64,000 nt of DNA from Psammoneis japonica. Its lineage: Eukaryota. The stretch lies in the NCBI GenBank assembly GCA_008632985.1, contig QPGO01000195.1:62001-126000 (forward strand), written 5' to 3'. Below are positions 4,601-30,471 of this stretch, one piece after another. The position numbers and the translations under genes are program-made. How positions within the stretch are numbered: position 1 is the stretch's first letter; each line of letters opens with the position of its first letter. The notes beneath the pieces are model-generated. The model did not search any database and had not been told where the DNA came from. It saw only the letters and a program-made list of their open reading frames with translations.

Positions 4601-7451
4601 CCGAACTGGTCGAGCACCGCATCTCCTTCGGTTACTCCCGGTGCTACCTCATCGCTGTACTTTCCCGACTGGTATTCATTCACAACAAGAGCACGGAGAA
4701 TCCACGCAAACACATTGGCCCAATACACCCATACCCACTTGAGTTTGAGTAGTAGTAGTAGTCGGGCAGCAGTCGCAAATAGTATATGGTGACATTTGTA
4801 GAAAAGTTCAGAGAGAAAACAAAACATTGAGCCAAACAAATCACGAATCATTGGCCCGGAAGAATTCAGAGGCTTTTTAAGTTCTTCCATTCAAGAAACA
4901 GCCAAAAATACTTAAGGATTACTTACATAATCCGGGATAACATCTGGCTGGACAGTGAAGCCTGCGGAGGAGAAGGAAGAAAAACGAATGCATTAGCAAT
5001 GTAAGCCCCGAAATCGAAATCAAGGCCGTCAAACCAACATATTTATTGTACCTGAGAACAAAACGAGCACAATAATGGCTACGGACATTGCGGCCTGTCC
5101 AGTTGGCCTATCCGCCACTGCCGACGAGAAGACGCTGAAAATAAGACCAGAAGAAAGCGAAGCAATCAAGACCAACAGAAGGAAGATGAAGTAATTCGCA
5201 ATGGAAGCACCGTCATCGTAAGCCAGGCCTACAAACCAGTATATGATTGTACCGTAAACAACAGCGTCGATAATGGCGGTGGGGATTCCGGCGAGACTAC
5301 GACCGACCACAAATGTCCATGTCGGAAAAAAGTTCGCGTCTTGATGTTTGTATACAATGCCCCGAAGGTCAAACTGCTCTGGAACACGAAGCATCGATCC
5401 CAGAGAGATGAAAAACATTGACTGGTATAAAATGCCCATCACACTTTGCGGATTTTCCCACTGTTGCCAGAACACCGTCCCTGCCACAATACCCATGATC
5501 AAATCTGGACGAAGAAGAGAGAAGAAGGCGGGAAGAAGCGGTCAAAAACGAAAAGCCAGCAGTGCGCCGACACTAGAGACTTTACGAACCTTGCAGGATG
5601 CGCGCCTTGATCGTGTACTTGTCTCTCCACCAAAGGAGCATCTCGCGTCCAATAAGTAGCTTCAAAGACCGATACCACCGGTTTTTGAATTTCTTACTTG
5701 CAATATCTGTATGCAGATCATTATCGTGTTCCATATTCTCTTTAACAGTCTTCAGCAGAGCATGTCCACGTTGGCTTGCCTCGAATTTGTCAACGAAATC
5801 TTGGGTGGTCAAGTGTTTCTTTTCCTTGTTCACTCGAAAGGACGCACCATCACGAGTAGGCAAAGCCTACGGCAAAAAAAGGAAGGAAAACAATTAGCGG
5901 CAATAACATCAGTTTCCCTCGTCACTGTCACAAAACCAGCCTACCTGCAACCAATCGGCCGGGTCCATTCTATCTGGAATTTGGTATCCCAAGGATTCAA
6001 AGTAAGGAACAACCTCAACCACAGGCCCACTGTAGATGATGCGACCAGAATCGATCAAGACTAATTCATCGAATAGAGCAACCGTTTCCGGCGGTGGTTG
6101 CAGCAAGGAAACAATCTTGATGGTGTTTGTAAGCCTAGAGGTTGCGCCTAAAAGTTGCACAATATCGAAAGTCGTGGCAGCATCAAGGCCCGTGCTAATC
6201 TCATCCTGTGGCGCGAATGTATGGTATCTGGAGTTAGGCACGAAACCACAAGCAAAACCAAGAGGCAAACAAAAAAAAGTAAAAACTTACGCAACAGAGA
6301 ACCGGTACGCCGACGCACATCATTTCGGAGACGGTCACTCTCTTCTTCTCTCCTCCGCTTACTCCGCGAACGGAGACATTGTCGCCAACAAAGGTGTCGT
6401 TAACCCTGGCCAGTCCCATCCCCTTGAGAACTGCATTCACTAGGTAGAGGTCCTCGTCCAATTGTTTCACAATCTCGGCAACCTCCGCGTCGTCCATATC
6501 AAAGTTCACATGTTCATGTGTTCCCCCCGAACGACACTGCCATGCAAAAGTACATGTCTCGAGAACCGTGAGATACTTGTGGAGTCTATCAATCTGATCA
6601 ATGTGTGCTGTTAAATTCTGAAGCGTGAAAAAGCAACGTTACGGTGAGGCGCGACAATACACAACACGTGAAAAGATAAATCTAAAGGGATTGCTCATCA
6701 ATTACCTGCCAGACGACCTTCTTGTCTGAAGATTTGAGTCCATTGATCATGACATCGCCTTCTAGGACGTTTTTCTTGTCTTGACGAAGAGTGTTCGCGA
6801 TCATTTTCAGCAGAGTTGACTTCCCCGAGCCCGGGGCGCCAAGGACAAGGTAGAGCTTGCCCGACTTGAATTCGAGGTTGACCCCTTCCATGATGCACTT
6901 CTCTACTGTTTCTTCCTTCCATTTACCTGTCTTGAAAAACCTCTTCAACTTTCCCATGAGCTTTGTCGACATGCGTTCGGTGTGAACTGTTTTGATCTTT
7001 TGCTTTGCTCGTTTCGGGCCTTCCTGGTCGTCTTCCGAAGATGGTTCCGGCGCGACATTGGAAACCGTGTACTTTCCGTTAATGACTCTGCAGATATAAT
7101 GACGTTCTTCCACCTTAAGACTGGCCCAGAGCTTTTTAAACTCCATAATAAGTTCGTCATCTGCCGCCGCCGCACGCATGGAGACGTTCTTGGCAATCTC
7201 TGCTTCCAAAAGGGTCTCTCCGGAAGAACTTCCTTTCTCCACATCTTCGTCTCTAGTAATCACAGACGAAATCCTGTCGGGGATGGATACATCTTGCCTG
7301 AGGAGAAAACACATCATGTGGCGTTTGTTAGAGCAAACCAAGGTACGAAGTACACACATCCTCATCGCCGCATAAGATCTTACTCAGCACAAATGTTGAG
7401 AAGCTCCTTGTAAGCCTCCTCGCGCTTCAGAGAGGCTTCCTCTCCCGACAT
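1622..7451 (-). CDS. Full-size ABCG/PDR-type ABC transporter (NBD-TMD-NBD-TMD), many introns
   Basis: Walker A GAPGSGKS and GAGKTT, signatures VSGGEKKRV and [22 protein letters not shown]-like VHQPS, two TM blocks; ATG at 7451 in gccaccaccATG context followed by an intron. Confidence 0.92.
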
Positions 7452-8174
7452 GGTGGTGGCTTCCCTCGACTCGGAGCTAAAGCAAACAAAATTGATCTGC
7501 AACTACGATACCAGAGAATATAACAGGCGTCACGCAGGTGTCGCAGATGGAGAGAGAATGAGAGGAATCTGTTCCTCGTTCCTCGCGTAATACTTACTGT
7601 AACACCGCCTATTATCTTACCGTGGCGCGCACATCGACAAGATCGCATGGCGGCGTCACACAATTCTTAGTCGCGCAAAACGGCGGACAGACGGAAATAA
7701 ATTTTCTTATACAAGTAATCAAAGCTGAATAATGTTTCAAACTACTCCAACTCAACGGAAAGCGGGTGGTTCGTCCAGACCTCGGGAGTGGTGGGTTCGT
7801 CCTGATTTTCGCGCCAACATTATTATTTTAGGAAGCGACTTGGAACTAAACGTCTTCTCATCCCGCCCAGTGAGCCGTAGCCTCGTCGTTATATCACCTT
7901 TCAGCTCTCTGTGCGTTTCAAAGAGACAGTCAGTCTTCACGGACAACAAACCACACAGATTGGCAGCCAGCAGCTACCGCAGCTTTGCACTAGATCAAGA
8001 AAAGTGAATTCTCGCAAGGCGAGTCGTCCAGTCTTGAAGGGACTTCATGGATGGTGGCTGAGCGTTTGCGGAAGTAAAATTCATACAACAACAAGAAACT
8101 GGGGTCTAACAGACTCCAGTCCTCCCAGCTCATGCGTCTCCACCGGCAATCACGGCTCTTCGGAACTCTCGAAG

Positions 8175-9138
8175 TCACTCCCTCAGAAATTCAAAGTCAA
8201 GGTCCTCCCAATCCTTTGTAAACCAAAACCACATTGATGGCTGCCATGTGCAAATGAGCAAGAAGAATGATGTCAATGACGCATCGCAAACTGCTGCAAG
8301 AGCGGGAGCAGGCAAGTCAACAACGCACCGTCCGAAAAAACGTCTTGAGTGTAAATCGCGGTGCACTGATGAAGGGAAACAGCTCCTCGGCAACAATGTC
8401 CTTGGCATGAGGCTCGTTTTGCTCCTTTCGCCAGCATTCGCTCAAAAAGTGAACTTGACGGAGCCCAACAACCACATCTGATGGAGGCGGCAGCAATGCC
8501 CACCATGAACATAGAGGCGGCTCGTCTGAGGCATTGTTCTCAGTGCATGTCTCATTGACTCTGCGACATAGATTGACTTGTCCCAACAGAATCCAAAGTG
8601 CTGCTGACTTTAGAACAAGCTCACCGCCAGGGATGTGGAAGAGAGACAAGGGAAAGCCAACGATCACACCACAGACGAATGGGAAAAGAGTTCCACAGCC
8701 ACCGCACCCAGAGACTTTTCCTTCCCTTTGCAACTCATGTTGAAACAGTTCTTCTTCAATGCTGAACTTACAGCAGTCATGCCATCCCAAAGCGGTTGGA
8801 ATGCTTGCTGCAATTGCAAGCCACACAGGTCTTGAAATGCCTGGGGTCTCAGGCGGAGCCACAATTTTCGAGAAGAAGTCATTCCCAGCTGTTCCAGCCG
8901 GTTGCAGTTCGACACAATTCCTTGCAGGCTCAATCACGGTGCCTTTCCAAAACTCGTTTGCACTGACACAGAAATCATTGATCAACTTGTCATTGGAAGA
9001 GTCGTCGCCTTTCGCACGAGCTGCTGAAAAGGAATGCCGTCGACGATTGTTTTGGTGAGGAACAAATCCAGACACGCAGGTTGCTGATGCTGGAGACAGG
9101 AAAAGGGAGAGAACAGCCAGAAGAGAAGACGATGTCAT
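8175..9138 (-). pseudogene. Plastid-targeted membrane protein gene, probably inactivated (LINE in 5' UTR; TpA-hypermutated)
   Basis: Signal peptide + VSGF|VP motif; intron ~8328-8241 joins to PSMWFWFTKDWEDLDFEFLRE*; no Tyr in the 293-aa ORF, with Cys/His where Tyr is expected (GWHDCCKF, GGCGTLFPFVCG, NLCRR, SECW). Confidence 0.65.
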
Positions 9139-9216
9139 GGTGGGGTGGGCCAAGGCTGCTGTTAGAGAGCCACAACACGAACAAACGCGCGTGCGCACAA
9201 GCTAAAAAATGGCACC

Positions 9217-11601
9217 ATGGCACCCAAGAAACGAACCAACTCTGCGGTGAAGAGCAACGCTTCACCAAGGAAAGGCATGAAAAAGAAACAAAGTAAAGGA
9301 CAAGATGGCCAAGCAGCGGCAACGAACCTCATTGACAATCCCAAGAAAAAGGACGATGACTGTTCTGTCCAATGCCCACGCTGTCCAGTGCAAATTCCAC
9401 ACAAAACTCACGCAAGAAGACGCCACCTTACGGGACTCCGAAAAACACCGACGGTCGCCCTAACACCAGGAGTCAAGGACTCACCGAAGCAGAAAACAAG
9501 ATCACCCCAAATGAAGAAGTCATTGATGAGAAAGATCACATGCAAGAACCGACTGAAGAAGAAGATCAGAGCAAATTTCTCCCAGATCATCCCGACCCAG
9601 AATTGCAAGAAACGACAAAACCGACTGATGCAACGGACAACCTTGGTCTCACGAGCTGGAACCACGTTGACAATTCCGACGAAGACGATGACAACCTCGA
9701 CGACACCACAAAAAACCTCTTCGGCACCGAGTCAGAAGCCGCCAAAGAAGATCAATCGATGGAAGATGTCGAGGAAGACGAAGAAGCTCCGGACGAAGAC
9801 ATGCAAAGCGGTTTTCATCACACGGATGTCCGCTACAACGCCTTCATTGCCATCCCACCCTCCAAAAAACCTCTCAAAACGATCTCCACTGTGATCCGCA
9901 AAGCTGTTGACATCATTGGAGACGTTCTCGGAGACAAAGTGATGATCGGCACATGGGATCCGGAACTTGAGGATGCCTTCGGCACCTGGCGAGACGGCGA
10001 TGACGTGCCGGAAGGCAAAGCGCAAGACAGGGAGACCATCAGCTCTTTCATTGGCATCAACTGTCTTGCACCACAAGCCAATCAAGAGCACAAAACATGC
10101 GCTCAAATCCGCTTTGTTACGGTGCATGACCCCAACGACGGCGAAATCGACTGCGACACCGCAGCCGAAAGGAAATGCGGAGAAAGGCCACTCGGAGCTT
10201 TTGAAGACATCGAAGAAGGTCAATTCAACGTTGGCCGCAACCCCCTTCTGTGTCAGTCCACCCGATTGGAATGCATTGGATGGCTCTGCATGAGCGCCAA
10301 GACGATGAACGAGAAGACGCTTCACTGCACCATTCGGAAGCATCTCGGTCTGGAATTCAAGCGTGACTGCTTGGGACTCCAATGGCAAGCCATCGCACTG
10401 CCAACCGGATGCCGCCCAACCTTCAACAAGAAAGATCCAAAGAAAAACCCGAGGCTCTTCACCTTGTCGTCGACGTCAATTACGCCCACCAAGTTGAAGT
10501 GGCCGCTGAGAAGTTGTGGCGGGTTGGAGCACCCAAACGCATCCTCGGCCTGCAGCTTCGTCATGTCCCTTGCTGCTCCTCGCCAACCATGCGGAGCGCT
10601 CCAGATGACATCCGCGAGTTGTTGATGAGCTTGCACAGCGCCAACACTGCTTCTGCAACAATGTGTTGAGCCAAACAGACTTCAACTTCATTGCCAATCT
10701 CGACGTGATCCGGAAATCCAAGAATCCTCCCACGACCCTGCGAGCATTTCTGATGAGGAAACATGCTCAAGATCCTGCATCTGATGTCCCCAAGATGATT
10801 CCATTGTTTCATCACATCAACCACAAGTGGTGCAGGGAAAACGAATGCACCATTTCCTTCCCCAAGAAGAACTTCAAGAAAGCGATGAGCACCATCAACA
10901 ATCTCATCCCCGAGGTCCTTCACCACTTCGGACTGGATGCAGCCTTCTGGTTCACGTCGCTTGGCATCTCGGTCTACGAAAACACCGTCTGCAACCCGGA
11001 AACAGGAACCACCACTTCGACCCAGAGCAACAAGATCAAAGAGATTGTCGAAGATGACCCCTGGGGCATGGAGGATGACTGGCAAGCACAAAAGAAGGCA
11101 AAGGGCAGACTGAACGCCAAAGAAAAAAGGAACACGTCCAAAGTCACGTTGCCCAAGAAATTGCCAGCCTCGCCATCCAAGAAGGCACCCTCCCCAGCAA
11201 AAGAGGCAGCAGAGCGCCTCGCACAAGCTGATGACATTGGATCAACAGGAATGCTTCGGGACAAGAGCAACGACACTCAATGCTCCAAAGCCAACAAGAC
11301 GGTTCTCTTCGACAACGAGAACCCAGAAGAACTCCACGAGTGCAAGAGGGATGACGCATCCATCAAGACCACCGAATCCACCCACGCAAAGCTTCAGAAG
11401 TCCCTTGAAGTCAACGACAAACTCTCAATTGAAGTGGAGGAGTTGCGCCAGCAGCCAGAGGAAGCACGCAACGAAAATGGCGTGGCACACCACCCCAACG
11501 ATGAAGGTGGTGCACAAGCCGAAACCAGCCTCATGGCCATGGAGGCTGGACGACACGAACAGTCTGCACCATCCTCGGCAGGCCCGTCGACGCCTGCCTG
11601 A
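9217..11601 (+). pseudogene. LINE ORF1 (frameshifted)
   Basis: Protein-like reading split over ORFs 9217, 9372, 10382 and 10663 by about three frameshifts; basic N-terminus, acidic linker; ends TGA just before ORF2. Confidence 0.7.
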
Positions 11602-11639
11602 GGAGGACGTTAAACAAGGAACACCAAGTCGACAAACCA

Positions 11640-13440
11640 ATGAGAGGTGGGGGGTCTCCACGCTGCTGAAGAAGAAAAACAACATCCGGATCACCTTCCA
11701 CAATGCAGGATGCCTCCCCGTTAACCTCAGTGGGGCAGATGAACACAAAGGCATTCTCAAATGGATCTCTGATGATCAAGCTGATCTCATGGGGCTCAGC
11801 AAAGTAAACCTCAACTTTTCCAGAATCCCAAAACACGAACAATGGAGAGACAGATGGAGGAACCTGAAAGGTGGAAGCTCTGTTGTCGCCACAAACAAGC
11901 ACTGCTGCACAGAGAACAAAAGACAACATGGAGGCGTCGGACAGCTCTTGACATGCGACATCAGCCACCATTTGATTGCCAAAGGAACAGACCCAACAGA
12001 GCTGGGCCGCTGGACATGGATTAGGCTGCAAGGCAAAACAGGTGTTCATGCGAGGATCATGTCGACGTGCCGCCCCGTCCAAGACAAAGGAGGAAACCCA
12101 GGAAGAGTCCACTCTCAACAGGAGACATGCTTCAGCTCCAAAGGCGATGATCGGTGCCCACGAGATGCACCACTCTTGGACCTCGGCAAGGAAATCAAGA
12201 AGTGGCAGACGGAGGGCGATCTGATTGTCCCAGGAGGGGATTTCAATGAAAACGTTCACTCAGCCCCCTTTAGATCATGGGTGCACTCTCTAAACTTGAT
12301 CGACGCACTCAAGACAGCACACCCGACACTTGAGCCAGTGGCTGCTTGCGACAAAAACCAATCGGAAATTCAAATCGATGCCGTTCTTATTTCACCCTCA
12401 CCAGAAGTCAGCCGAGCAGGAATGTCTGGCTTTGGTGACTTTGACTGCACCTCGGACCACCGCATTGTCTGGATCAACATCATCAAGTCAAGCGCGCTGG
12501 GTTGCACTCCACCGAAGCTTGCCAACATCAACCCCGACAGACTGGCTGGCCAACTGAAAGAGCCCGAAGTGACAAAAAAATGCGCAACAAACCAGCAGCA
12601 ACCCAGATTTGTCAGGACGGCATGCCACGTCGAGTGATTGATCTTGAGAACGCCGAGGATTTCCCACCGCCCTTACAACAAGCCTGCGAAGAACTCTTTG
12701 AAAAAAATCACAAACTGCGCCAACACTCCAAAACCAAGTGCCGCAAGCTGCACATGAACGAGGTGGAATCTTCCAACAAAATCAACAAAGCCAGAAAGGA
12801 AATCCACCTGTGGCGCCCAATTTACAAGCTCCGACAAAGGCATCACGTCAGCATGTCAACGACATGCCGCCGCATGAAATGTGCTGGCCGAATGGACGCT
12901 CTGTCTGTTGCCTCGAACCATGTTCAGCAGGAACACAAACAAGCGATGAAAAGGCACTGCAGGCTAAAAAAGGATGCTGCCAAACACCGCCAGAATGAAT
13001 TTAAAACACGGTGCGCAAAAAGAGCTGAAGAAAGTGACACAACTCCAGAGCACGAAGAGAAACTCATCAGCCACAGCTGCCGACAAACCAAAGCATTCAG
13101 ACGAATTTTTGGACAGAAAGAACATCGGCCTTTGCTGGCTCTCAGGAGCAATTCAACAGCTGTGGAATGTCTCTTGGGACATGTGGCGACAACGCATGAG
13201 CGCCACTGCTGTGACAACTCGGCAACACAAATCAGAATCAACAGCCTTCTGGATGACAAGATCAAGGCGGAATTTGCCTCCTGCTTTAATTCACCCAATG
13301 CCTCTCCCCACCTCACAAGGTGGTTTGCCCAATCCATGGAAGAAGTCCAGGCAGAAACCACAGACTTCAAGCGCAACTGGATCGAAGCAGTCCGGGTGCG
13401 AAAACAACAACATGCTTCTGTGTCTTCATCGACAACCTCC
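11640..13440 (+). pseudogene. LINE ORF2: APE endonuclease + C-terminal remnant, reverse transcriptase deleted
   Basis: APE motifs RITFHN, GLSKVN, LGRWTW, GGDFNE, IDAV, SDHR; C-terminal LWNVSWDMW motif follows ~13140 with no RT (YxDD) core between. Confidence 0.8.
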
Positions 13441-14763
13441 TAGGCTCCACGGAGCCAAGTTGCCGATTGCCGCCCACAACTGCAAATGCGGCATTGCACA
13501 TGTTTTGTTGTGCATCGATGCTCTGAACCTGTCCACAGTTGTGGATTGAAAGGACTCTCAGGCGAATCTAAGCCCCAGGCAGCAGCCACTAATGGGCTGT
13601 GTAATTTTTAAGAATTGAATTGAATTGAATGGGCTGCTGTTAGAGAGCCCCACCAGTGCCGGCACGTAAAATTTGACTTGTGTTGTGTGCGTCAAAGCAC
13701 AGGGGTCGAACGAAGGCGCACCGGGTGCAGTGCGTGCCGCGCGTTCAGGAGAATTCTGAAGCTCGGACCTCGACAATTTTCATTTCGGTTGCCGTAAAGC
13801 TTACGCAGGAATTAGTAACATTTCTGAATGTGCTGAGTTCGAATGTACATTCTACACACAAAGTCATGGCATTAATTCTACGAAGGCACACAAAAATGAC
13901 AGTGATTGAGAAATTTAGCAACGGTCATGTCTCACTCAGAATCTCTCGGAAATTCTTTCGCGCTTTGCAATCACAACTCGTCGTCTCGCACGATGTGTTT
14001 GTTGTTCGCCAAGCCGGAAGCCGTAATCTCCGAGGATGGCTCGCCCTTCCTCTGGATTGAGAGCTCGCTCTTGTTTGGCATTCCACAACTCATTTTGCTT
14101 GATGGCGTGTTGTCTCTAGGTGGCGTAGGTGTTGCCAGTTAAGTCCAGAGGTCGGGGCAAATCGAGTGCGTCTCTCCGGCCTTGAGTCCATGTCACTCTC
14201 GTGTCTTTGAGCGTAGGAAGTTGCCTGTTCGCTTGACCCGTCAGGTCACGGCTGTTGAAACAGACAGCAGCGTTCGTCTGTGAAGCAGCAAAAGCTCGCC
14301 AAGCAGATCATGCCGTTGACGGAATGCGGGTTTGGGGTTCCGTCGTATCAGCATGACATGATACGGTAAGTCTTCACTCGCAGGGAGTGTTGATTTAGAA
14401 CGCGGTTGACTCGCAAGTTTTCTTGTTGTCTCCGTAGTACGTCCCCCCTTTTACATTTTTTAGAGTGATATTTTTCACTCTGAAGATACGTAAAAGCTGC
14501 GAGCGCCATCTTTTGATGGGGCTCTTGAGGCAACGTTACCCTACGCAACCGATTTCAATAGCTACTTCTGATATTGGTGTGTTTCAAATCGTTGAACCAC
14601 TATTGGAAACGTTTCAAATAGAAGCAGAAAGACTAAAAGTACAATGTAGCAATCTTTATTTGCGTGTAAGTTAATTCCGTACGTACGTCAATAGACTACG
14701 AAGGCGGTCGTAGCTCTCGGATCAGCATGAAGAGCAGAGCTGTCAAGAAGCTCAATTAAAGCT

Positions 14764-17700
14764 CTAAACCATTCGCGAGAAATGGCGAAGAAGACAAAGT
14801 GAATGCTGCATCTTATTCCGAAGAGCATCGGATGCCGATTGTTGAGCGACGCGCAGCGCTGAAACGGTTTCTAGGAGATGATGTCGTTGTTTCTTCTGGC
14901 GTTCTTCGTCTTCATCGAAACCTTTAGTTTCATCCAGCTTGTTGTCTTGCTTGTCTTTCCTTACAGAGTCGTCTATTCCTGCAACTGTATTAGTGTGCAA
15001 ATAGAGGAATCGATGTAAATAAGCATTGGTCGTTTCGTAGTCCTCGCGAGATTTGCACGCCTCTAGAAGCCACATTGAAGCCAGACAGAGAAGTGGCAAC
15101 CCCTCGTCCAAATCATGCATGCCATTGCAAAGAGTTGAAAGTGCGATATCAATAGCCGACGGTCCTAAGCCTGCCATATAGTCTGTAACCGACTGAAATC
15201 GACGACAGCCGTCGTCCTCATGAGAAAGTCGCCGGCTGTGGCAATCTTGTAACAATCTTGCAAGGTGAGATCGAAAATGCGTAACTTTCATTTTCTTCTT
15301 GTTCGGAGCTAGAGCCAGCCATTCTTCATCCTCCTCTTTCTCTTCTGCCTCGGCTTTCTTTTTCGATCCAAATGCCTTCTCATCCATGTCGTCATCATCT
15401 GACCAAGCCGCTTCCCATTCTCCTTCTTTGCCTCCAGATTCCGTATCCATGTCTTTGGGTACGGCGCTTTCCTCCGGTGTACTCGCAGCACCACCCATGT
15501 CTTGCCCCCCTCGAAACTGCAAGAAGAAGGGCGCCGCAGGTGGTTTCTTGGGCGCTTCCTTGGGCTTGTTACGTTCCTTCACAAGTTCCAAATGAAACAG
15601 ATTCTTCCAGTGAGACGGTGGTAGTCCGCTCAACGTTATTAACCCTTCCTCTTTGGGGATCGTTGGTCCGTGCTCTTTGCTAGTGCTAGCCGAAGCTTCT
15701 CCGCGTTCTCCTTCCGGTTTGAATTCTTCTGCCGTTTGGTCACTTGCTAGGACTACCGCCGTGTCCTGCTGCTCTGCAAAAGGAACGGGCTGGTTCATTA
15801 GCGCCGGTGCTGTGGGATTCCTACCACCATTCACATGAATCGTTTGGTAAAAACTCTTGTCACTCCACAGTGATATCCCCAACTGACTGGAATGGGTTGT
15901 AGCAAACATCTCACCAGTGGGACTTGTAGCTAAACTTGTTGGAGGCGACTCAAAAGCTAGCCAATCCACACATGTATTGGTTGGGACGTCCCAGACACGC
16001 ACTGTTCCGTCCAAACTAGATGTCAGCAAAGTTCGCCCATCCGGTGTAAAGTCCAACCCGGATATCTGGCCCGTGTGGTGACAATCGTCATTTCCTCCAA
16101 ATCGTCGAACAATCGACAGGGCCACACAGTCAAACAAAAGTACAGTATAATCATAAAGCGCAATTGCTGCAAGATCCGAGGCCCGAACATGACGCAACTT
16201 GGTGGCTGCACAGGGTAACATAAAGGGAGATTTCTTGTGTGGGGCATGCGTTTTAAAATGCCACAAGGTCAACTTGGAATCCATCCCAACGGAAACAACT
16301 GTTTTGTTGAGAGAGTCCACAGCCAAGCCAGTGACATCCATGTCGTGCGCTGCCACGTTTAGGCGCTTTTGCTGGTGTAGCAATTGCGCCTTTTCCTTGT
16401 CTTGATCCTCCTGTTTCTTTGCTTTTGTCACCTTGGCACTCTTCTCCAATGCCCGCATAGTTCGATTGATATCGCCCGCATGCGCGTGTCTTCTCTTTGG
16501 CTCATTCGCGCTTTGGTTCTTTGGAGGGTACGATCCTCGTGGAATACCGGATTGCACATTGTACTTGTAGACGACACCACTACGCGTGCCAACAAGACAA
16601 TAGTTGCCACAGGCTGACAAACAAACCGCAGTCGCATGAGTTGCAGGCGGTGGTTGCACTTGCATAGCACTGACATTCCAATCCGGCTGTCTCAAGACGG
16701 GTCCGGATTGAGCACCACGACGGGTGTTCCATACATAGGCATGGGCATGGTGCTGGTGGATAGTCACGGCATCTCCCCAATCACGGCTCTTGGCATTGCA
16801 AATGACCATGTCCACAATAGGCGGCAGGAGCAAGTCTGCCGCGGCAACGCCAAACTTTTTCGCCTTCTTTGCCAATCCTTGCCCCTGACTGAACTCTCGA
16901 TCCAGCACGGAACGCGCAGATGAAAAGGATCGGAGCGTACGATCGTTTCCACCGCCACTCAGTAACTGACAGACACTCGCATCCGTACCATCCATCATGT
17001 TTTGATGCAATAGCTCCGTGCTCCTGTACAAGTATTGAATGCATGAAGGTGGTTCAGTATGTCCCGCTCGTTGTCGCAACAATCTTCCCGAATGATTTGG
17101 ATTGTCAAACACGTGCTGTTTGATGGAATTGCTCTTGATGCCGCTCGAAAGCAAAAGAGGTTCTTGCGGTAGATAATCAAGGCGAGACACACCTCCCGGA
17201 TGAACCCCCGTCATTTCACACAAGAGCGCTCTCGTCGGTATTGCTTCAGCTCCCATATCTTCCTCGTCATTATCATTTTCATTTTGATCCTTGGGAGTCA
17301 AATCCCATATACTAATCGTTCCGTCCGAACGGCCAACCGCAAGTGGTGCAATCCCATAACGCATGGCTGAACCATCTGTGCGAAAGGACAGGGAGGTAAT
17401 TGCTGAAGTATGATGAAGCGAAAATAACAGCGCATCGTGCTTGATGTTGACGAGATGAACCATTCCCGAATTAGTTCCAACCGCAACCGTGTCCATGGCT
17501 GGGGATTGTTCCAGCGCGGAAATGGCTGCAACTCTTTCAAGACAAGCAAAGTCGTGAATGATCTTGCGAGAGCGCACATTGATCAAGATGAGCTTTCCCA
17601 GGCTTGATCCCACCAAAATCTTGTTGACATAGGTCGATGGGTGCATTGCAATAGTGGGAGTTCCAAAATCTTGTGGTAGCATAGTACGATTCATAATTTG

Positions 17701-22856: not shown

Positions 22857-23426
22857 TTAAATGCACATGATTTTAACCAACATGAAATGAATCTTCAACC
22901 TCCCCTCGAGCAAAAAGACAAGGAAAAGGAACTGAGCATCGTCAACCGTCTCCATGGGAAGAGTTTCGGGAGCAGCTTCTTCGGTACACGCTTCAGCCTC
23001 TGGTTTCTCATTTCTGTGGAACATTTTGTTTGTAGTGTTGGTGACGCCGGCACCCATTTTCTGAAACACATTCTTTTTCTGGGCTTCTTCGTGTTCCGAA
23101 CCTTCCAGAGGCGTCTCTTCGCCTTCAGGCGTTGCTTCTCCTTCTCTTAAAGAAGCTTCAACTGCAAGTGCCTCTTCTTCCACCTCCTCTGCCGGAGCAA
23201 GCAGGTCCGTCTTGGTGTACGCATCGCACGTAGCCGGATCCGGCAACGCTGACATCAAGTGGTGCACCTTCTCCTTGCACTCTTCCTCTGGCAAATGCTC
23301 CTTGCAGCGCGAGAGGAGATCGAGCTGCTTTTCAATTTCCTCCACCTTTTCGCGACGGAGGGCTTCTAGAGCGTGCGTAACAGCCACCGCTGAGTCTTGA
23401 TCTTGGGGGAGCACTTGGGTTGTCAT
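22857..23426 (-). CDS. Paralog of the C-terminal domain of the 20881-22279 gene, partly TpA-mutated, possible stop read-through
   Basis: EIEKQL..L...K....EEE....V..L..ALPDP.T.DAYTKT and FQKM shared with the neighbour; Tyr replaced by Cys at aligned sites. Confidence 0.65.
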   Translation of the reverse strand: MTTQVLPQDQDSAVAVTHALEALRREKVEEIEKQLDLLSRCKEHLPEEECKEKVHHLMSALPDPATCDAYTKTDLLAPAEEVEEEALAVEASLREGEATPEGEETPLEGSEHEEAQKKNVFQKMGAGVTNTTNKMFHRNEKPEAEACTEEAAPETLPMETVDDAQFLFLVFLLEGRLKIHFMLVKIMCI

Positions 23427-24799
23427 GGTCAATAGATGCGTTGGGGTTCTCGTCGTTTTGTCGTTTTGCGTTGTGACTGCGATCAGTCGCGTGTCGCAAG
23501 TCGCGTGTCACGTCGTTGTTCTTTTTGCTTGCACCGCAAATTCGCGTGGGACAGGTTCTGAGCCTCGTGACAGATGTGGCTTCGACCAACCGGTCTGCGC
23601 CACTTGCTTGGGGGCTGCTTTCTGTCAGTCATCATCGGGAAGAATGCTTGGAAGAAGGTGACAGAGGGCCGAGTGCGCTTCAATGGCAAGCAATGAGGCA
23701 TTTGGTGCTCTGTTGGTGCTCAAAAACAACTTGAAGAGAGGAAGCAGAATGGGTGTGGCCCAAGGGGACTCACGCGCTGGAGGCACAAAAGGGCCAGCCG
23801 CAAGAGAAACAAGGTGATGCCAGGGTTGGACAAAAGAGGGGCTGACCAAGCACCAGGAGTGGGAAAAAGTGGGTTGTTGATGACCAACAAAAGAGCACAG
23901 CAGGAGAGCAAGCTGGGGCAAAAGTTTTGGTCACAAAAGGGGTCAGCTCTGCTGCCACCTCTGTCGGAGCAGGGCACGAGGTGCCAAACAACAACAAAGG
24001 AAGCAACAATTTTGATCACTGCCTGGAGGTGTGGGTGCTTGTACAAGCAACATTGGCATTGCAGCAGCAATCTGTGGCAGTGCTGTGGTGCTCCCAGTGC
24101 ACTGAGATGGGGGCAGATGTGGAGTCGTTGCAAAGATTGCTGTTGTTGACAATTTTGAGAGTTGTTTCTGAGTTGGAACATGTCACCAAGAAAATGTTTG
24201 GATTCACTGAAGAATGGAGCAGAGCCTGCTCCTCATGCTCGCCAGAGGCATGACTTTGAGGGTCAGCCAAGTGCTTGATCTCTGTGATGTGAGGGGGTCA
24301 CTGTGCTTGCAGCAACTTGCAGTTGGAGCGCAGTTGCGTCAACACACACCCATTTGTTGGAGGGAGAGCATCAGCTGTGCTGGCTTGTGCAGTGAAGGCT
24401 TTGTGGTTGCACATCTCATCCTGCAAATTGGGGGAGTCTCATGACACAAGATGTTGTTGGCTGCTCCTGCCATTTTTCAGCACAGCTCATGACATGCGCA
24501 TTCCCCAACGACAAGGTCCGCAAGGTGCTGGGTGTCTCACAACCTGATGACAGGGCACAGGCAGTCTGCCACAGATTGTGCATGCTCGTCAGCATGCCAT
24601 CTTGTGTGCATGCAATGCACCATCACCATCTGTGCAGACAACTCTGGCAGGACCCAAATGACTGTCAGTCCCTCACCTCAAGAACTTTTGCTCCTGTTTG
24701 ACCAGCACCAAGGCGCGCAGTTGTCCTGCTGCACACTGGTGCTCCTTGCACTTGCCATTTTCTCATTTCACCTGGCTTGACATGCAAAATTTGACATGA

Positions 24800-27000
24800 T
24801 GGCATGGAGCCACATTTCTGTGGAGCACCGCCCCCGTCAGGCTTGTTCTCATGTGGCAGTGTGCACCACAGCTTCTGTGGTGAGTGCAGCTTCTTCTGCT
24901 GTGAGTGTGCCACCCTGTGTGTCATCTTTGTCAACCAACTTCATGTTCTGCACTGACTGAAAATGAGCACAAAAGTCAAATTTCTGGCTGCCCAACACAT
25001 GGGTTTTGTGCTCTGTTGTGCAGCTCTCCTGCAGGCTGCACTCCACCACATGTTTCTTTTGATCATGGCTGCAGTCATGCTGTGTCACCTGGTCAAGTTC
25101 AGCCAAGAGTTTGGCTCCTCTGCTGAAGATTGCCTGGGCCATCTGTGCAGCTGTGCCTGCTTGATGATGTTGGACATGATGCTGTCAGCAAAAGCTTGGC
25201 AGGTGTTTCAGCAACCAGCAATCTCTTGAACCAACCTGCGACAGGGTTGGCCATTGCAGCTGATGCCCACAAATGTGGGGGCTTCTTTGCTTGTTGCTTG
25301 GCTGTGCATTCCTCTGTCACAGTGTTTCACACAGACAGTTTTCTCGTGGGCCAATTTTGGCCATGTTTTTTGGCACCTTCCAACATTTCTGACTTTGACA
25401 TTTGTCTTTTGACGTGCTTTCCACTGAAGCACATGAAGTGCACTGCAGCTCACGCAACATGCCAGCAGAAGCATTGGGTGACACAAATGTCTCAGCTTGT
25501 GTCTCTCTCTGGAATGGCACAGCTGAGGATGACATCAGCCCATCGCCTGCTTCTGCAGCAATGCTTGGACACATGATTTTGTCCTCACAGCAGATCAGCT
25601 GTCTTGTGGATGATGTTTCCCACCCCACGAAAAGAGTGCAAGAGATGCTGGTCTGACACACACAGGCTTTTTGCAACAGGCTCTCATCTTTGTGCTGCTC
25701 AACTTGCAGTTTCTTAAGGGGGGTCATTTGCTGCTTTTTTCAGCTTGAATTTGACTGAACAGCTCACAATTTGCATGATTTTCACAGTGCTTCACCGAGG
25801 TGAAAACATCAAGACATTGCAAGTCTGTGATGGAGGTGGTCCATCTGTCAACTCTCATTTGTTGTTTGTGTCCGTTGTGTGTCAAAGGCTGCATGTGCAT
25901 CTGATGTTTGAGGATGGGCCGCTGCATTTTTGAGCTGTGTCGACATTGCCATCATCTTGGTGCTTCGATCACGGTGCCTGGTGCTCTTGTTTTCATGTGC
26001 GATGGGGGGGGGTTGAATGCAAACTCAAACAATTTTTGCATTCAAAAACAAACACTGCAAATGTCCTCATTCAAATGCCATGGCAATTCTGGGACAAACG
26101 CAGGGGTGATCACAGCAACCAAGCTGCTGTGGTGGCCTTTGATGTGCCACAACTCAGGCCCGCACTCTTTGCACATCAAGTGTGGCTCCATGTCAGTGCC
26201 CATGAAGTTGTCCCTTTGTGCAGCAGGAGTGGCCATGTGCCGCTCTTCTTCAGGCACACAGGAGCACACCAGGTGGCTGTGCCAATGACAAAGACACCAA
26301 AGGTTTTTGGGAGACACTTTGTTGTGCAGGTGTTTGGGAGGTTTGGTGCCACCGTGAAGCCAAATCTCTTTGCATTTTTCTTTCCAGATTGCAGCACATT
26401 CTCTGCACAAATTTCCACAGCATGATTTCAACTCCTTTGCTTTCGACTTTCAGCACAAGTTTCAAGCACAATTCTGCATGCTCAGACACAGATCATTGTT
26501 CTGCCCCTCTTGCTCCCTTTCTCATTCCAAGTTTTGTCACAGCGAACTTCCAATTCATGAAGGATGTCTGCACTTGGCATCCCAGTGTGGGGCCTTGCAA
26601 TGCTCTCAACAGGACACCCCAACACTTGCTGTGGTTGAGGCCCCTTTGCATTTTGTCATTCTGGCTTCACACAACATGCCCCCTGTGCAACTCTGCACAT
26701 GATGGCACTTTCTTTTGACCATCTTTCATGTTGGAGCTCATTGGATGTTTCACCCCAGGAAGTTTTTTCTTTCTTTTGCATGCTTCATCTTCAGAGAGAG
26801 TCGCATGTTTGGTTTTTCTGCAGCACTTTTGTTGTGACTCCCATGTGGTGTGGGCTGGCTGGGCTGGCCCATTCTTTGAAGCACAGCAGCTCCATTTGCC
26901 ATGCGACAATCACACAGCACCATTTTGGCTCAAAGCTGTTGGGTGTGATGGGCACTGGTGTCTTGCAACAATGCATTGAAAGTCTTCAAATTGTCCCTGC
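24800..27000 (-). mobile_element. Ty3/gypsy pol remnant (RT - RNase H - integrase order)
   Basis: CVIV..GKWSC (~26900, cf. CTIVLPWGKY), ECGPELWHIKG (~26150, cf. EYGPELxYIKG), EQHKD (~25690), LWASAAMANPVAGWF (~25250, cf. ALTMIDPATGWFE); heavily degenerate. Confidence 0.5.
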
Positions 27001-27839
27001 CACCCTCTGGGTGCTGGCAGTGAGACAACAGCACAGGTGATTTCTTTTTCTTCTTTGCATGCCAAGTGTCAGCACATTGTGTGATTGGCACTTGGCATCA
27101 TGTGCTTTGCACGTGAGATTTTCTTTGACCAGTGCACACAGTTGCTTGTGATGCTGTGCAACAAGAACCCAGCTGAGCACTGCTGAGATTTTTGCTGCAA
27201 CAAAATGCTGGCAGTCTGCCAGCCTGCACATTGATGAGCACACTTCAAGCAGTTTGCTGCAATCTGGGCATGCACACACACAATGACTCTTTGGGCATCA
27301 CCTGCCTTGCAACATTCCTCAACATGACCCTCCAGCCCCAGTTGGAAGTCCTGCCTGCAAGTCTTGCAAGGGCCAAACATCTGAGTGGCACAACACATCT
27401 TGGCAGCAGCCAACCACCCTCACAAATGAGCACAGCTCTTTCTTTGTCTGTGGCTCAGCTGCTCACTTGACTGCCTTGACCTTCTTCATCAATCAAGTTG
27501 CCAAGAAGTGCCTTCCCCAGCAACTTCACATGCCAAAGGTTTTTGAGCAAGTTCAACAAAAGACAGGCTTTGTGGTGCTCACCTCAAGCCTGCCTGGTGT
27601 GTTGAAGCCTCTCAACTGCTTTGTCCCAGTTTCTCAAGAAGGTTGCCAAAAGCAAGCACTCTGCAATGACTGAAAGATCTCTGTGTGCACACACACAAAG
27701 GACAAACCCTGGAGTGGGCCAGACAATTTTTCCTGAATGTTGGGGGGGGGGGATGTTTCAGAAAAATGAGAAGCTGCAAAGCTTCCTGGGCATCAAGTCA
27801 AGGGGCACATGGTGATGACCCATGCTCAGATCCGGGGAT

Positions 27840-28236
27840 GACGTGCTCCAGCTCTGGGTGGGACCTTGCACTGCTGCACTGTGACATCAATGGTTTTTTG
27901 GATCATGTCGCATGTCGCGCATGCACATTTCTGTGTGTTGCATTCTACGAAATTGTTTCATGCTCCCTGTTTTGCGAAGCCAAAGGCTCTCCATTTTCAA
28001 CATTTGTGAGAGTGAAAATGTGCTGGGTGTGTTCTTCAATGTCTGAAGAATGCAACCGGGCAAACCATCAATGATGCACTTCAAGTGTGGAGGAGGAGAC
28101 ACATTCACAAAATTGCCTCTTTTTCTGTTGGCGGTCATTTGCACTTTCATTGCAGCACAAATTTGCTGCGGAGCTCGCACGCAGAATTCTGCGGGCCCAA
28201 TGTCACACGGAGTCCCACCCAGGACTGGAGCCCGTC
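27840..28236. mobile_element. MITE-like element with 25-bp terminal inverted repeats
   Basis: GACGTGCTCCAGCTCTGGGTGGGAC (27840-27864) vs reverse complement of 28212-28236 GACGGGCTCCAGTCCTGGGTGGGAC (22/25); related to 57810-58504. Confidence 0.7.
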
Positions 28237-29261
28237 GGATGCTGCCTGCTGGACTCAATGCATGCCCTGGACATGAGGAGCCAGGCACGCAGCATTTGCT
28301 TTGCCCATTTTCTCAGCTCACAAAAGCAAAAAAAGCCGTGCTGATGGGTCTTTCTTGGGTGTTGTGAGCAACGGAGCTGCTGACTTTAAAGCACTGGTGT
28401 TGCGTGGCATTTTTGTCTCTCTGTTTTCAACATTTGCTTGCAACACCTTAGAATCTTGTGGGGTCTGGTGCAGCACAGCTCAACATTGTCCTCCTTTGGC
28501 TGAGTGTGGTGGTGGGGGCACCTCTCCAGCCACTTGCCCAGCATGCAGTCAAGCAATGGCTTGTGCGCTTTTGAGGAGAGAGCAATTTTTGCTGCTGAAC
28601 TTTGTTCAAACTTCTGATGTTTTCAGCAACCTGTGGCAAATGTGAAGCCTGGTGCTGGGAACCCAGGGCAGCTGCAATTTGCTCACTGATCCTTTTTTGC
28701 CATTCTGGCTGGCTCTCTTGGGTGCAAAACGCCATTGTGCTTGCAGTGCCCATGCCTTGCATTGGCACCATTGGCAGTCAGCCATTTGATGATGGTTTGT
28801 TTGGAGAGCAAAGTGCTGGCTCCATGAGTTTCTGAAGTGCTGCACCTGGCAACCAGCACACCACACAATTGCAGAGCTTTCCATTGTGCAAATGGGCTGC
28901 AATTTCTAACTCAGCTGCTTTGAACATCCATGAAAGCCTGAGTTGAATCTGTTGGCACTTGCTGCTTGCTGAAAATGGGCCAGCCACTGTGTGCCCCAGC
29001 CAGTCTTGGCAGTGTTTCTTTTTGCCACAATTTTTGCAGCAGCCTCTGTCCACTGTCTCACAGCACCAGCTCTGCTGTCCAATGAAGCCTCCTCCACCAT
29101 TTTTGTTTTGCCTTTGTTGTGCATGGTTTTTAAAGCTGCAAACAGAGTTGGCATCTCTGTTTTTGTGATTTGTGAGTGGCCCACAGCTGGCTGCACACCA
29201 AGACATTTGTGCACGAGGGCCAGCCATCACAACTGCACTTCTTGTCCTTGTGCTCACAGGA

Positions 29262-30471
29262 GACCAAAAGTGCTTTGAGGAGTTTGTTGAGATCCTCAGT
29301 GATTTTCTTGTGTGCTTGGTTTTTTTCTTTTTGTCTGGAGGCAGTGCTTTCTGGGCCACTGCGCTGATGATGGTGCTCAACTTTTGACCACATCCCAGAG
29401 AAGAAAAACACTCCTCCTCTTCTCTGGCTCAACTGAGAGAGCACCCAGTCTTCATCTTGACCTTGAGCTTCAAACTGCTGCACTCTTAAGATTTTTTGAT
29501 TCCTTTTGAAACCTGCCGTCGGCATCTTCACCCTGTTGAAAAAATGGCGACAGACTCTGAAGCTGTGCAGTCAAGAGGTTCAAAGCTCCAGAGAGAACCA
29601 AACCTTTTGTGAAGTGCTGCACATTCAGAGCTCTGCAATTGAACAAAAATCTGCCATTTGTTGCCTGGCAACAACAGCTGCAGATTGTCACCTCTCTCAA
29701 CTTCCAGAGGAAAATTCTTTGAGCAGCTGTCCAGCTCAGCAGCCCTGGCAACATGCCCCCCCCCCCCCCCCTCCACCAAGTCTTTTTCATTTTTGCAGGT
29801 CTTCACATGAAGCAGATCAAGGGGCACTCATGCAGCAGTGCTGCCCTCTGGGGAAAGAGCCAGTGTGCATTGAGAAATTTGCATGTGAGAGCCATGCATG
29901 TGCCCCTTGTTTTTAGATTTGCTGAAGACCAAAAGTGCTTTGAGCAAACCCACTGAGATCCTTGGCAATTTTCTTGCACTTGGTTTTCTTCACATTGAGC
30001 ACTTTCTGGACCACTGCATCAATGATGGTGTTCAACTCTTGACTGCCCTTTTTTGCATTCAGCTGAGAGAGAGAGAGTGCCCGCCAGTCTTCATCTTCTT
30101 GACCAGCTGTGCCAAACTGTGGCTTGGCTTTTTTTGGAGCTTGCCTTTGGCTGGCATCTTCAACCTGCTCAGCTCATTTGCAAAAAAGCAACACACACTC
30201 TTCTGAAATTGTGCAACATAAAGTGGGCCAAAGCCCTGGAGAGCTGTGAGGTGTTGTCGTGCACTCAGAGCTCCACAGTGCCACTTGAACAAATCTGCCA
30301 GCTCGTTGTCTGGCAAAAGTGGTGGATCATCTCCTCCCTCAGCTGCTTTGAGCAGCTGTTCAAGCAAGCAGCCCTGGCAACACAGCCCCAAGTCTTTTTC
30401 ATTTCTGCAGGTCTTCACATGAAACGCCTCAGCCCCAAGCAGCACTTTTGCAGCAGTGCTGCCCTCCTGGG
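29262..30471. repeat. Diverged tandem duplication (~600-bp units)
   Basis: Units start GACCAAAAGTGCTTTGAG (29262, 29927) and share CAAGTCTTTTTCATTT.TGCAGGTCTTCACATGAA and GCAGCAGTGCTGCCCTC. Confidence 0.8.

Follow-up and report, generated by a model that had tools for sequence, protein, structure and literature searches.

An apparently single-copy, intron-containing host gene of the diatom Psammoneis japonica shares the near-saturated TA>TG/CA rewriting of a LINE-derived retrotransposon inserted next to it, and the changes in the gene come from both DNA strands and include the intron and the stretch past the stop codon. The gene lies in a window of 64,000 nucleotides (contig QPGO01000195.1, positions 62,001 to 126,000 of the forward strand), by which we mean the whole stretch of DNA analyzed. 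Our best reading, to which we give a probability of about 0.6, is that chromosomal DNA was hypermutated after the insertion by a TpA-specific A:T>G:C process whose reach depended on position rather than on RNA editing or repeats.

Table 1. Features of the rewritten locus and its surroundings, in window coordinates.
Feature	Positions	Strand	Remarks
Host gene exon 1	8329..9138	-	270 codons; conserved diatom protein
Host gene intron	8241..8328	-	88 nt, GT..AG ends (GTGCGT...CAG)
Host gene exon 2	8175..8240	-	21 codons + TGA stop; encodes conserved PSMWFWFTKDWEDLDFEFLRE tail
Presumed 3' UTR of host gene	8108..8174	-	67 nt, TA 0 vs 1.8 expected; not significant alone
Intergenic, host gene 3' end to ABC-transporter 5' end	7548..8107	.	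Normal TpA
TpA-poor, CA/TG-rich hypermutated block	8115..13569	.	From change points and TA positions
Left TSD copy	9154..9171	.	18 bp, 16-33 bp upstream of ATG; TA kept at 9163
LINE-derived non-LTR retrotransposon	9172..13631	+	4460 bp, RT removed by internal deletion; multicopy family
LINE last 71 nt	13561..13631	+	TA not depleted: 4 vs 3.6 expected
Right TSD copy	13632..13649	.	18 bp, perfect match to left copy
Right flank (host gene's former upstream region, now separated)	13650..13883	.	Normal TpA

An earlier note, made from the sequence alone, had described a gene with an intron and a frame that stays open, and both parts of that model held. Splicing out the intron restores the C-terminus PSMWFWFTKDW... 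seen in orthologs, and the resulting protein of 291 residues is free of frameshifts and stops. The intron is similar in length to those of the neighboring ABC-transporter gene (88 and 86 nt). Homologs numbered 338 at E<=0.001 among 1736 candidates, the best of them at E=1e-105, with identity reaching 71%, and every listed homolog with a named organism came from a diatom. The protein spans all 152 conserved columns of the family without a gap, the spliced tail matching too, and has in common with its orthologs a hydrophobic N-terminus followed by G-F, where the earlier note had placed a putative plastid-targeting peptide. Pfam had no match for this protein or for four orthologs, and searches of PDB by profile and of the ESM Atlas likewise yielded neither a match nor a named family for it. 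Judged by its sequence, the gene is a member of a conserved diatom protein family without an assigned function.

As the earlier note had said of its reading frame, the protein contains no tyrosine; it has 12 cysteines and 7 histidines. The 120 listed orthologs average 11.4 tyrosines (range 8-17), 3.9 cysteines and 3.7 histidines. At the 12 alignment columns where tyrosine is commonest, the host gene encodes cysteine at eight, histidine at three and phenylalanine at one. Cysteine or histidine at the same positions in orthologs had been named as a finding that would speak against hypermutation; across the 120 orthologs the frequency of cysteine is 0.00 at all 12 columns, and histidine is present at just two. 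Between 8409 and 8916, all tyrosine codons of the gene have been converted.

Alignment with the same orthologs also bore out the individual motifs that had been picked out as altered: EPARNCV carries V72A (GCA) and Y75C (TGT), GWHDCCKF carries Y120H, Y122C and Y123C, GGCG carries Y148C, NLCRR carries Y191C, and PPPSD carries L220S (TCA). FQHEL carries Y134H, at a site where 12% of the orthologs have histidine, and the cysteines of FVCG and SECW lie at residue 156, where orthologs have tyrosine (58%) or phenylalanine (42%), and at residue 235, where 79% have tyrosine. Over the 152 conserved columns the protein departs from the orthologs at 22, a number that none of the 120 reaches (mean 5.6, maximum 21). 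Scoring these differences for TA to TG or CA, as the earlier note had proposed, gave 11 single TA>TG/CA steps, four CpG>CpA changes and seven others; a residue of seven is ordinary, being equaled or exceeded in 38 of the 120 orthologs. Inferred changes on the coding strand comprise 10 TA>TG and 5 TA>CA, and at tyrosine codons the split is 8:3.

Maximum-likelihood change points place the left border of the TpA-poor block at 8115 (support 7894-8247), in agreement with the earlier claim that TpA is normal below ~8.2 kb, and the right border at 13569 (support 13441-13590). The block is shifted to the left of the LINE, covers the entire host gene and begins ~60 nt beyond its stop codon; TA is dense up to 8107, the last dense position. 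Observed/expected (o/e) TA per 500 nt is 0.04-0.21 in the block versus ~0.6 outside. Positions 8175-9138 hold 6 TAs versus 36.2 expected at the background o/e of 0.60 (Poisson P = 7e-10), and exon 1 holds 5 versus 30.1 expected (P=2e-8), with o/e values of 0.10 for TA, 1.43 for TG and 1.41 for CA. The intron has no TA, 9 TG and 12 CA, versus five TAs in each of the two ABC-transporter introns, so the loss of TA from the gene is not the result of selection at the codon level. For the LINE, there are 21 TAs in 9172-13560 versus 141.6 expected. Intensity is thus nearly equal, with 83% of TAs lost from the gene and 85% from the element. CpG o/e is 0.67 in exon 1 and 0.78 in the LINE, against a background of 0.96.

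The 86 surviving TAs are enriched in TTAA (4.75-fold) and in CTAA/TTAG (3.4-fold), and none lies in ATAC/GTAT (chi-square P=2e-18), an enzyme-like context bias. Seven TAs are left in the part of the block to the left of the LINE: six in the host gene (at 8219 in exon 2, and at 8352, 8512, 8569, 8611 and 8769), mostly in contexts that survive elsewhere, and a seventh at 9163 in the left TSD copy. All six in the gene lie in 8110-8769 and none in 8770-9162, a split with a chance of (660/1053)^6 or ~0.06, which we read as saturation with no clear gradient as one moves away from the LINE. The 3' end of the host gene and the left border fall together, and a transcript-defined model accounts for that at least as neatly. 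Two other TA-free blocks occur in the window; neither LTR pairs nor inverted ends turned up in a search of them, the 15 ORFs within or across their borders, of 22 submitted, had no Pfam match at E<=0.001, and an ORF across the thinned border of block 2 (22857-23507, minus strand) had no homolog at E<=0.001 among 881 candidates.

The LINE is bounded by an 18-nt target-site duplication, GGCTGCTGTTAGAGAGCC, at 9154-9171 and 13632-13649, and the gene at 8175-9138 lies outside it, as the earlier note held; the insertion is 33 bp upstream of the host gene ATG. The element has an endonuclease-like region at ~11630-12520, a (GAATT)n-like 3' tail and a weak Pfam match to Exo_endo_phos (E=0.0045, below the cut-off); a PDB search with the endonuclease ORF gave nothing below E=0.14. 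By tblastn it aligns to residues 31-535 and 1766-1861 alone of its 1868-residue relative P0121, and a second relative, P0122, carries RVT_1 (37.3 bits, cut-off 29.6). At the relatives' tyrosine positions the LINE has 3 Cys and 4 His relative to P0121, and 4 Cys and 3 His relative to P0122. A simple picture of the whole element plus spread does not predict the undepleted last 71 nt.

Spread is one-sided, the left flank of the LINE being changed and the right flank not: 13632-13883 has 10 TAs versus 9.7 expected and a CpG o/e of 1.17. An 852-bp repeat at 13884-14735, 250 bp to the right of the LINE, has normal TpA (o/e 0.61) at a summed depth of ~9400. The ABC-transporter gene on the left (ABC_tran Pfam match, E=9e-9) is expressed and its introns are confirmed, by a spliced contig in sequencing run X2 that ends at 7548. 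Run X2, which is labelled 'DNA?', has no contig over 7636-9055, an absence that we weigh neither way. Rfam gave no match over 7400-14800.

We assessed copy number from the contigs of one DNA run (X1), possibly the assembly's own sample, bearing in mind that contigs can hide variants. One X1 contig of 4925 nt spans 6500-9255 at a depth of 61.5, with 6 differences in 2756 positions, and the depth at the host gene (61.5) is that of the single-copy flanks (61.5, and 62.2 on the right). No second X1 contig lay on the gene at a likeness of at least 80%, a threshold that a paralog below 80% DNA identity would escape, and self-BLAST found no other copy of the gene, the LINE, the right flank or the high-copy repeat in the window. 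A multicopy gene, which the earlier note had said would favor a homology trigger, is thus not what the single contig at flank depth indicates; the gene is apparently single-copy and on both haplotypes. The LINE is multicopy (899 contig pieces, summed depth 144-644 versus 61.5 at the host gene). Site 8380 in the gene is TA in one and CA in the other of the window and the run contig, only a hint of a raised mutation rate. A joint between 9171 and 13632, expected of a LINE-free allele, was not among the 15 joints listed of 21, a comparison in which contigs cannot show absence.

Because the mutated stretch at 8115-9171 falls outside the TSD, has an intron within it and was changed on both strands (10:5), editing of transposon RNA cannot explain it, as the earlier note had argued. 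With RNA editing excluded for the host gene, the change was made on chromosomal DNA after the insertion, and the rewriting of a single-copy gene argues against a need for repeats, as far as the gene itself is concerned. Rewriting of the host gene also shows that the target was chosen by position. We infer a chromatin domain, a view indirectly supported by CpG decay over the same stretch, by the sharpness of the borders and by saturation that shows no clear gradient. Calling the outcome collateral damage to the gene, as the earlier note did, may reverse cause and effect: the gene would have been free of selection because the LINE, 33 bp upstream of its ATG, probably silenced it first. The LINE probably separated the gene from its promoter, and silencing would then have preceded mutation.

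A TpA-erasing signature is already on record for Bigelowiella natans, where a single 2026 preprint (Mettrop et al., bioRxiv 10.64898/2026.01.13.699255) reports hypermutation at TpA in giant-virus and virophage DNA integrated into the genome. According to this preprint, 210 of 211 de novo single-nucleotide mutations in giant-virus DNA and 20 of 20 in virophage DNA were A>G/T>C at TpA, the mutated integrated virus region is single-copy and transcriptionally silent, and the local de novo rate in mutation-accumulation lines is raised ~1000-fold. It also reports that RT and endonuclease domains are over-represented among B. natans coding sequences poor in TpA; its authors extended the viral region by ~21 kb on the basis of mutation rate, and its Discussion mentions a 5'-U preference of ADAR-type A-to-I editing. 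The words 'diatom', 'flanking', 'spread' and 'host gene' are absent from its main text, and a full-text literature search for TpA erasure in diatoms found none, the preprint being the sole relevant match. The P. japonica locus resembles the reported system in that A>G/T>C changes occur almost exclusively at TpA and on both strands, TpA depletion goes with a gain of CpA+TpG in discrete kilobase-scale regions, and single-copy chromosomal DNA can be the target. It differs in its host, a diatom (stramenopile) rather than a chlorarachniophyte; in its target, a retrotransposon and a conserved host gene, of which the LINE is foreign and the 1.06-kb gene part is host DNA; in degree, near-saturated at an o/e of ~0.1 versus a Rho of 0.45 reported for the giant-virus region; and in being a historical footprint alone, whereas in B. 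natans the rate was measured.

In RIP of ascomycete fungi, C:G>T:A mutations, mostly CpA>TpA, strike duplicated targets and leak into adjacent single-copy genes. Our locus resembles its products in having dinucleotide-specific transitions in a genomic transposon, a damaged neighbor gene and a compositional block left behind. However, RIP makes TpA from CpA, whereas here TpA is destroyed (o/e 0.1, CA/TG up) by A:T>G:C change, and the host gene is single-copy and mutated equally to the LINE while the abundant repeat at 13884-14735 is spared. ADAR-type hyperediting of retroelement RNA has a similar A>G outcome with a 5' T/U neighbor, but non-element DNA outside the TSD, an intron and both strands are changed here, and the changes were therefore not inherited via an edited retrotransposition intermediate. 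Methylated transposons show CpG decay, and heterochromatin can spread from transposons into neighboring genes. The locus is similar in its CpG o/e (0.67-0.78 versus 0.96), in the CpG>CpA class of 4 of its 22 changes, and in a one-sided extent that ends near the promoter of an expressed gene, but its main signal is at TpA, unexplained by cytosine methylation, and its 'spread' is permanently recorded as mutation.

The following course of events would account for the locus. After insertion of the LINE, a silenced domain anchored on the element would have grown leftwards over the host gene, which, severed from its promoter, would have been untranscribed and no longer protected by selection. Leftwards the domain may have halted where the active promoter region of that neighbor, the ABC-transporter gene, lies; rightwards it would have been halted at once by the former promoter region of the host gene and an expressed repeat. 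A DNA-level mutator acting in the domain would have replaced A by G in the 5'-TA-3' steps of either strand, most likely through deamination of adenine to inosine, as proposed for B. natans, and would have run until only poorly targeted contexts remained, with cytosine methylation in the same domain adding CpG>TpG/CpA decay. The dead gene would keep its open frame because TpA chemistry cannot create a stop codon. More tentatively, at somewhat below even odds, what the mutator recognizes is a heritable state tied to position, in the form of silent chromatin or of a mark guided by RNA, and not sequence, repeat status or foreign origin, and it saturates whatever DNA lies inside; an insertion would then 'burn' the adjacent gene, borders would record chromatin barriers, and an old SAR-wide defense would be possible.

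The block might be defined by a transcript instead of by the spread of chromatin, with the mutator guided by, or coupled to, RNA entering or leaving the LINE 5' end. Such RNA could come from an antisense LINE promoter reading through the host gene to its terminator, or from plus-strand read-in from a bidirectional promoter of the ABC gene, running antisense through the host gene into the LINE. A left border at 8115 (7894-8247), ~60 nt from the host gene stop, is where a transcript would be expected to end; the block from there to ~13569, just inside the LINE 3' end, resembles one transcription unit; the right flank, which the LINE cuts off from the host gene, is unchanged; and guidance by RNA is also suggested by the B. 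natans authors (10.64898/2026.01.13.699255). However, the strand asymmetry of transcription-coupled deamination is seen neither in the host gene (10:5, and 8:3 at tyrosine codons) nor in the LINE (Cys:His 3:4 versus P0121 and 4:3 versus P0122), and the hypermutable giant-virus region is reported in that preprint to be transcriptionally silent (10.64898/2026.01.13.699255). We consider a transcript-defined block unlikely.

Lower still we rate a trigger by repeats or homology as in RIP, under which the host gene segment has, or once had, a second copy, made alone or with the LINE, or mutation leaked over a short range from the LINE. The LINE is indeed multicopy, and fungal RIP does leak into single-copy flanks, but the host gene has one contig at a likeness of at least 80%, at single-copy depth, and no other copy in the window; it is saturated to the same extent as the LINE and shows no clear fall-off across 1 kb; the right flank is unaffected; and the far more abundant 852-bp repeat has normal TpA. 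The B. natans target, too, is reported as single-copy (10.64898/2026.01.13.699255). That the only changed flank is a stretch of ~1 kb at the LINE 5' junction would also suit damage during integration, in which resection would have left the flank single-stranded and open to a deaminase, all in one kataegis-like burst. One exposed strand would give one kind of change, though, and both kinds are present (10 TA>TG, 5 TA>CA); the 4.4-kb body of the LINE is equally affected; and, since the window and the run contig disagree at site 8380, the changes do not all come from one old event, making this origin highly improbable. Finally, the gene was probably dead from the insertion onwards and free to drift, yet ordinary divergence, pseudogene decay, lineage-specific amino-acid usage or a sequencing or assembly artefact is scarcely credible when the frame lacks frameshifts and stops, 15 of 22 departures fall into two dinucleotide classes with the other seven being ordinary ortholog variation, TA loss has P = 7e-10, and short-read contigs depart from the window at only 6 of 2756 positions.

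With position-defined hypermutation of chromosomal DNA as the preferred reading, the locus serves as a naturally occurring control for a eukaryotic mutator that has hardly been described. It shows a cost of the mutator system: in a gene conserved among diatoms, 11 conserved tyrosines have been replaced with the frame still open, and annotation pipelines would still call the rewritten gene a gene. The seven surviving TA sites between the left border and the LINE are potential rate reporters, and we predict that the borders of the block match methylation, heterochromatin or transcript boundaries. A TpA-specific DNA adenine deaminase, if that is what acts here, would be relevant to genome defense and to base editing. 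If the mutator does read positional state, TpA chemistry in both a rhizarian and a stramenopile would point to an old defense by DNA adenine deamination, and the rewriting of the host gene would be a mutational position effect, the irreversible loss of a gene that lies next to a transposon.

The product of the conserved diatom gene that adjoins the LINE has 291 amino acids, among them 12 Cys, 7 His and, as the earlier note had remarked, no Tyr at all. By contrast, its orthologs (the 120 listed of 338 homologs at E≤0.001, from 1736 candidates; best identity 71%) average 11.4 Tyr (range 8–17), 3.9 Cys and 3.7 His. Among the orthologs, Tyr is the commonest residue in 12 alignment columns; in these the window has Cys eight times, His three times and Phe once. 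The orthologs do not carry Cys at these positions (frequency 0.00 in 12 of 12 columns), and they carry His at only two (0.12 and 0.44). Across the 152 conserved columns (at least 80% consensus), the product is off consensus at 22, a number that none of the 120 orthologs reaches (mean 5.6, median 5, maximum 21). Half of the departures (11/22) are single TA>TG or TA>CA steps when scored in their own codon context: Y>C, Y>H, V(GTA)>A(GCA), L(TTA)>S(TCA), and T>A over a T|A codon junction. Another four are CpG>CpA by their codon contexts (aa 59, 113, 127 and 240). The seven that remain are an ordinary number, as 38 of 120 orthologs have at least seven; beneath an overlay of hypermutation, then, the gene has the look of a normal ortholog that was functional until recently.

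The ORF has no frameshift or internal stop, and the spliced product regains the conserved C-terminal PSMWFWFTKDW... block common to all orthologs. The intron is 88 nt long, compared with 88 and 86 nt in the neighboring ABC-transporter gene. The latter two are confirmed by a contig (6500–7548) from X2, a run labelled 'DNA?'; this contig skips 6618–6705 and 7297–7382, and on the minus strand both gaps have GT..AG ends. It is a spliced ABC-transporter mRNA ending at 7548, and X2 thus behaves like RNA-seq. The product, hydrophobic at its N-terminus and then G-F, found no named relative in Pfam, PDB or Atlas and is a conserved diatom protein of unknown function. Its organism-named homologs are all from diatoms (Corethron, Cylindrotheca, Seminavis, Cyclotella, Thalassiosira, Chaetoceros, Pseudo-nitzschia, Odontella and Attheya), and the window is diatom nuclear DNA.

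Features of the region and of the other TA-poor blocks (window coordinates)
Feature	Position	Strand	Remarks
LINE/gene block	8115–13569		border support 7894–8247 and 13441–13590
Exon 2 of gene	8240..8175	-	TGA at end
Intron of gene	8328..8241	-	88 nt, GTGCGT...CAG
Exon 1 of gene	9138..8329	-	
Direct repeats	9154–9171, 13632–13649		perfect, 18 bp, GGCTGCTGTTAGAGAGCC
LINE between repeats	9172–13631	+	4460 bp
Block 2	23437–32132		TA 0–3 per 500 nt; CpG o/e 0.03–0.53
Block 3	53455–64000		TA 0–3 per 500 nt; CpG o/e 0.34–0.95

The gene contains 6 TA dinucleotides, against 36.2 expected at the window background o/e of 0.60 (P=7e-10). Because the loss extends into the intron (TA 0, TG 9, CA 12, compared with five TA in each of the two ABC introns), it is a mutational effect rather than codon choice. 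The TAs that survive in the three blocks (n=86) are enriched in TTAA (4.75 times the background share) and CTAA/TTAG (3.4 times), with ATAT and CTAG rare and ATAC/GTAT at 0 of 86 (chi-square P=2e-18); the six inside the gene are mostly in surviving context kinds. Such a bias points to a process that is near completion and has an enzyme-like preference; it reflects either the mutator's own flanking-base preference or TAs regenerated later.

Copy number was read from the contigs of one DNA run (share of sampled words 0.84) at a likeness of at least 80%. A single 4925-nt contig covers 6500–9255 with six differences at a depth of 61.5 (62.2 in the right single-copy flank), passing unbroken through the TSD into the LINE, and no second contig was found on the gene. 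An unmutated allele or close paralog should have shown at this threshold, given an expected difference of just a few per cent. This argues that the gene is single-copy and that the mutated, LINE-bearing form is the sole one in the sample, although variants can be hidden in contigs and the assembly may itself come from this run. Of the six differences (7448, 7876, 7890, 8341, 8380 and 8497), five are CG or TA versus TG or CA, three at CG/TG and two at TA/CA sites; local polymorphism falls mostly into the same two classes of dinucleotide. At 8380 the contig reads TA and the window CA (synonymous Leu, CTA versus CTG), which hints that not all changes in the gene are old; at 7890, outside the block, the direction is reversed.

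The LINE translation aligns to aa 31–535 and 1766–1861 of P0121, a relative of 1868 aa, and to aa 59–542 of a second, P0122, which has RVT_1 above the Pfam cut-off and weak RNase H, zf-RVT and endonuclease matches. The window copy has lost its RT through an internal deletion and retains a weak Exo_endo_phos match alone (E=0.0045). It ends 3' in a (GAATT)n-like tail, and its family is multicopy (899 contig pieces; summed depth 144–644 versus 61.5 in flanks). From the TSD, the alignments, the tail and this multicopy status, we class the element as an RT-deleted LINE derivative on sequence criteria. LINE and gene stand head to head, with the 5' junction of the LINE 33 bp upstream of the gene's ATG, and the DNA formerly upstream of the gene, cut off by the insertion, now begins at 13650. 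The TA-poor block is offset leftwards from the LINE: it takes in the entire gene, ending ~60 nt past the stop codon. In the final 71 nt of the LINE, TA is normal (4 versus 3.6 expected), as in the right flank (13632–13883; 10 versus 9.7). TA loss is alike in the gene (83%) and the LINE (85%; 21 versus 141.6 expected), and CpG o/e is also reduced (exon 1 0.67, LINE 0.78, background 0.96).

On the coding strand of the gene we count 10 TA>TG and 5 TA>CA changes (8:3 in Tyr codons). An edited retrotransposition intermediate is excluded as their source, and with it RNA editing of the transposon, as the earlier note had argued: the gene (8175–9138) lies outside the TSD (left copy at 9154–9171), its GT..AG-type intron is hit, and both kinds of change occur. 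Exposure of one strand at integration does not fit both kinds on the coding strand. A RIP-like repeat trigger is unlikely, since the gene is single-copy and an abundant 852-bp repeat (13884–14735) keeps a normal TpA o/e of 0.61. This repeat, 250 bp to the right of the LINE, has a summed contig depth of ~9400 in the DNA run (flanks ~62) and ~260 in the RNA-like run, a normal CpG o/e (1.15), and no Rfam match, internal repeat structure or further copy within the window; it is abundant, apparently expressed, and untouched by the mutator. With these three sources set aside, what remains is a DNA-level, position-defined process that acts on either strand and turns A in 5'-TA-3' into G.

The main rival is a block defined by a transcript. 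Its left border does coincide with the 3' end of the gene, but the strand asymmetry of a simple transcription-coupled version is lacking. Under position-defined conversion, a silent domain with its anchor in the LINE would extend over a gene already without its promoter and without the protection of selection, halting leftward at the promoter region of the expressed ABC gene (7548–8107) and rightward at the gene's former promoter and the expressed repeat. The gene was probably silenced first and mutated afterwards. The earlier note's observation, a TA>TG/CA signature in the gene next to the LINE, is confirmed, and its reading as DNA-level hypermutation spilling out of the LINE is supported; the chromatin component is what we infer.

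CpG loss is far stronger in blocks 2 and 3 than in the LINE/gene block, and CA+TG o/e rises to as much as 2.1 over most of block 2 and over two parts of block 3, its first 4.5 kb and its last 4 kb. Pfam gave no match for the 15 ORFs (22 submitted) that lie inside these two blocks or span their borders, and no LTR pairs were found in them. Host genes close to their borders (a CS-domain gene from 32265, a P450, and GXWXG at 52560–53216) keep normal TpA. Next to block 2, immediately beyond its sharp border, TA is thinned at 22900–23433 (8 in ~530 nt; o/e 0.28 for 23001–23500), which may be a second, partial overshoot; an acidic ORF over this stretch (22857–23507, minus strand) has no homolog at E≤0.001.

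A full-text literature search returned one relevant report, a 2026 preprint on Bigelowiella natans (10.64898/2026.01.13.699255). According to its main text, in mutation-accumulation lines 210 of 211 SNMs in an integrated, single-copy, transcriptionally silent 186-kb giant-virus region, and 20 of 20 mutations in a virophage region, were A>G/T>C, all of these at TpA, and TpA-poor coding sequences were enriched in RT and endonuclease domains. Its authors propose that an ADAT2-like enzyme deaminates adenine in DNA, with RNA or chromatin as a possible guide; the words 'diatom', 'flanking', 'spread' and 'host gene' are absent from that main text (10.64898/2026.01.13.699255). TpA hypermutation of the diatom gene is a variant on a process with one described precedent, in another alga.

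Trinucleotide counts fit a process that removes stop codons and, as the earlier note expected, makes none: in counts per kb per strand, TAA and TAG drop from 18.4 to 3.7 and TGA climbs from 17.9 to 23.9, with the gene's frame left open. In 8115–13569 and the other blocks, where TAA and TAG vanish and TGA alone remains, long overlapping frames stand open on both strands, including 17 ORFs of at least 150 aa in 53.5–64 kb. Gene finders could mistake such ORFs in hypermutated DNA for genes.
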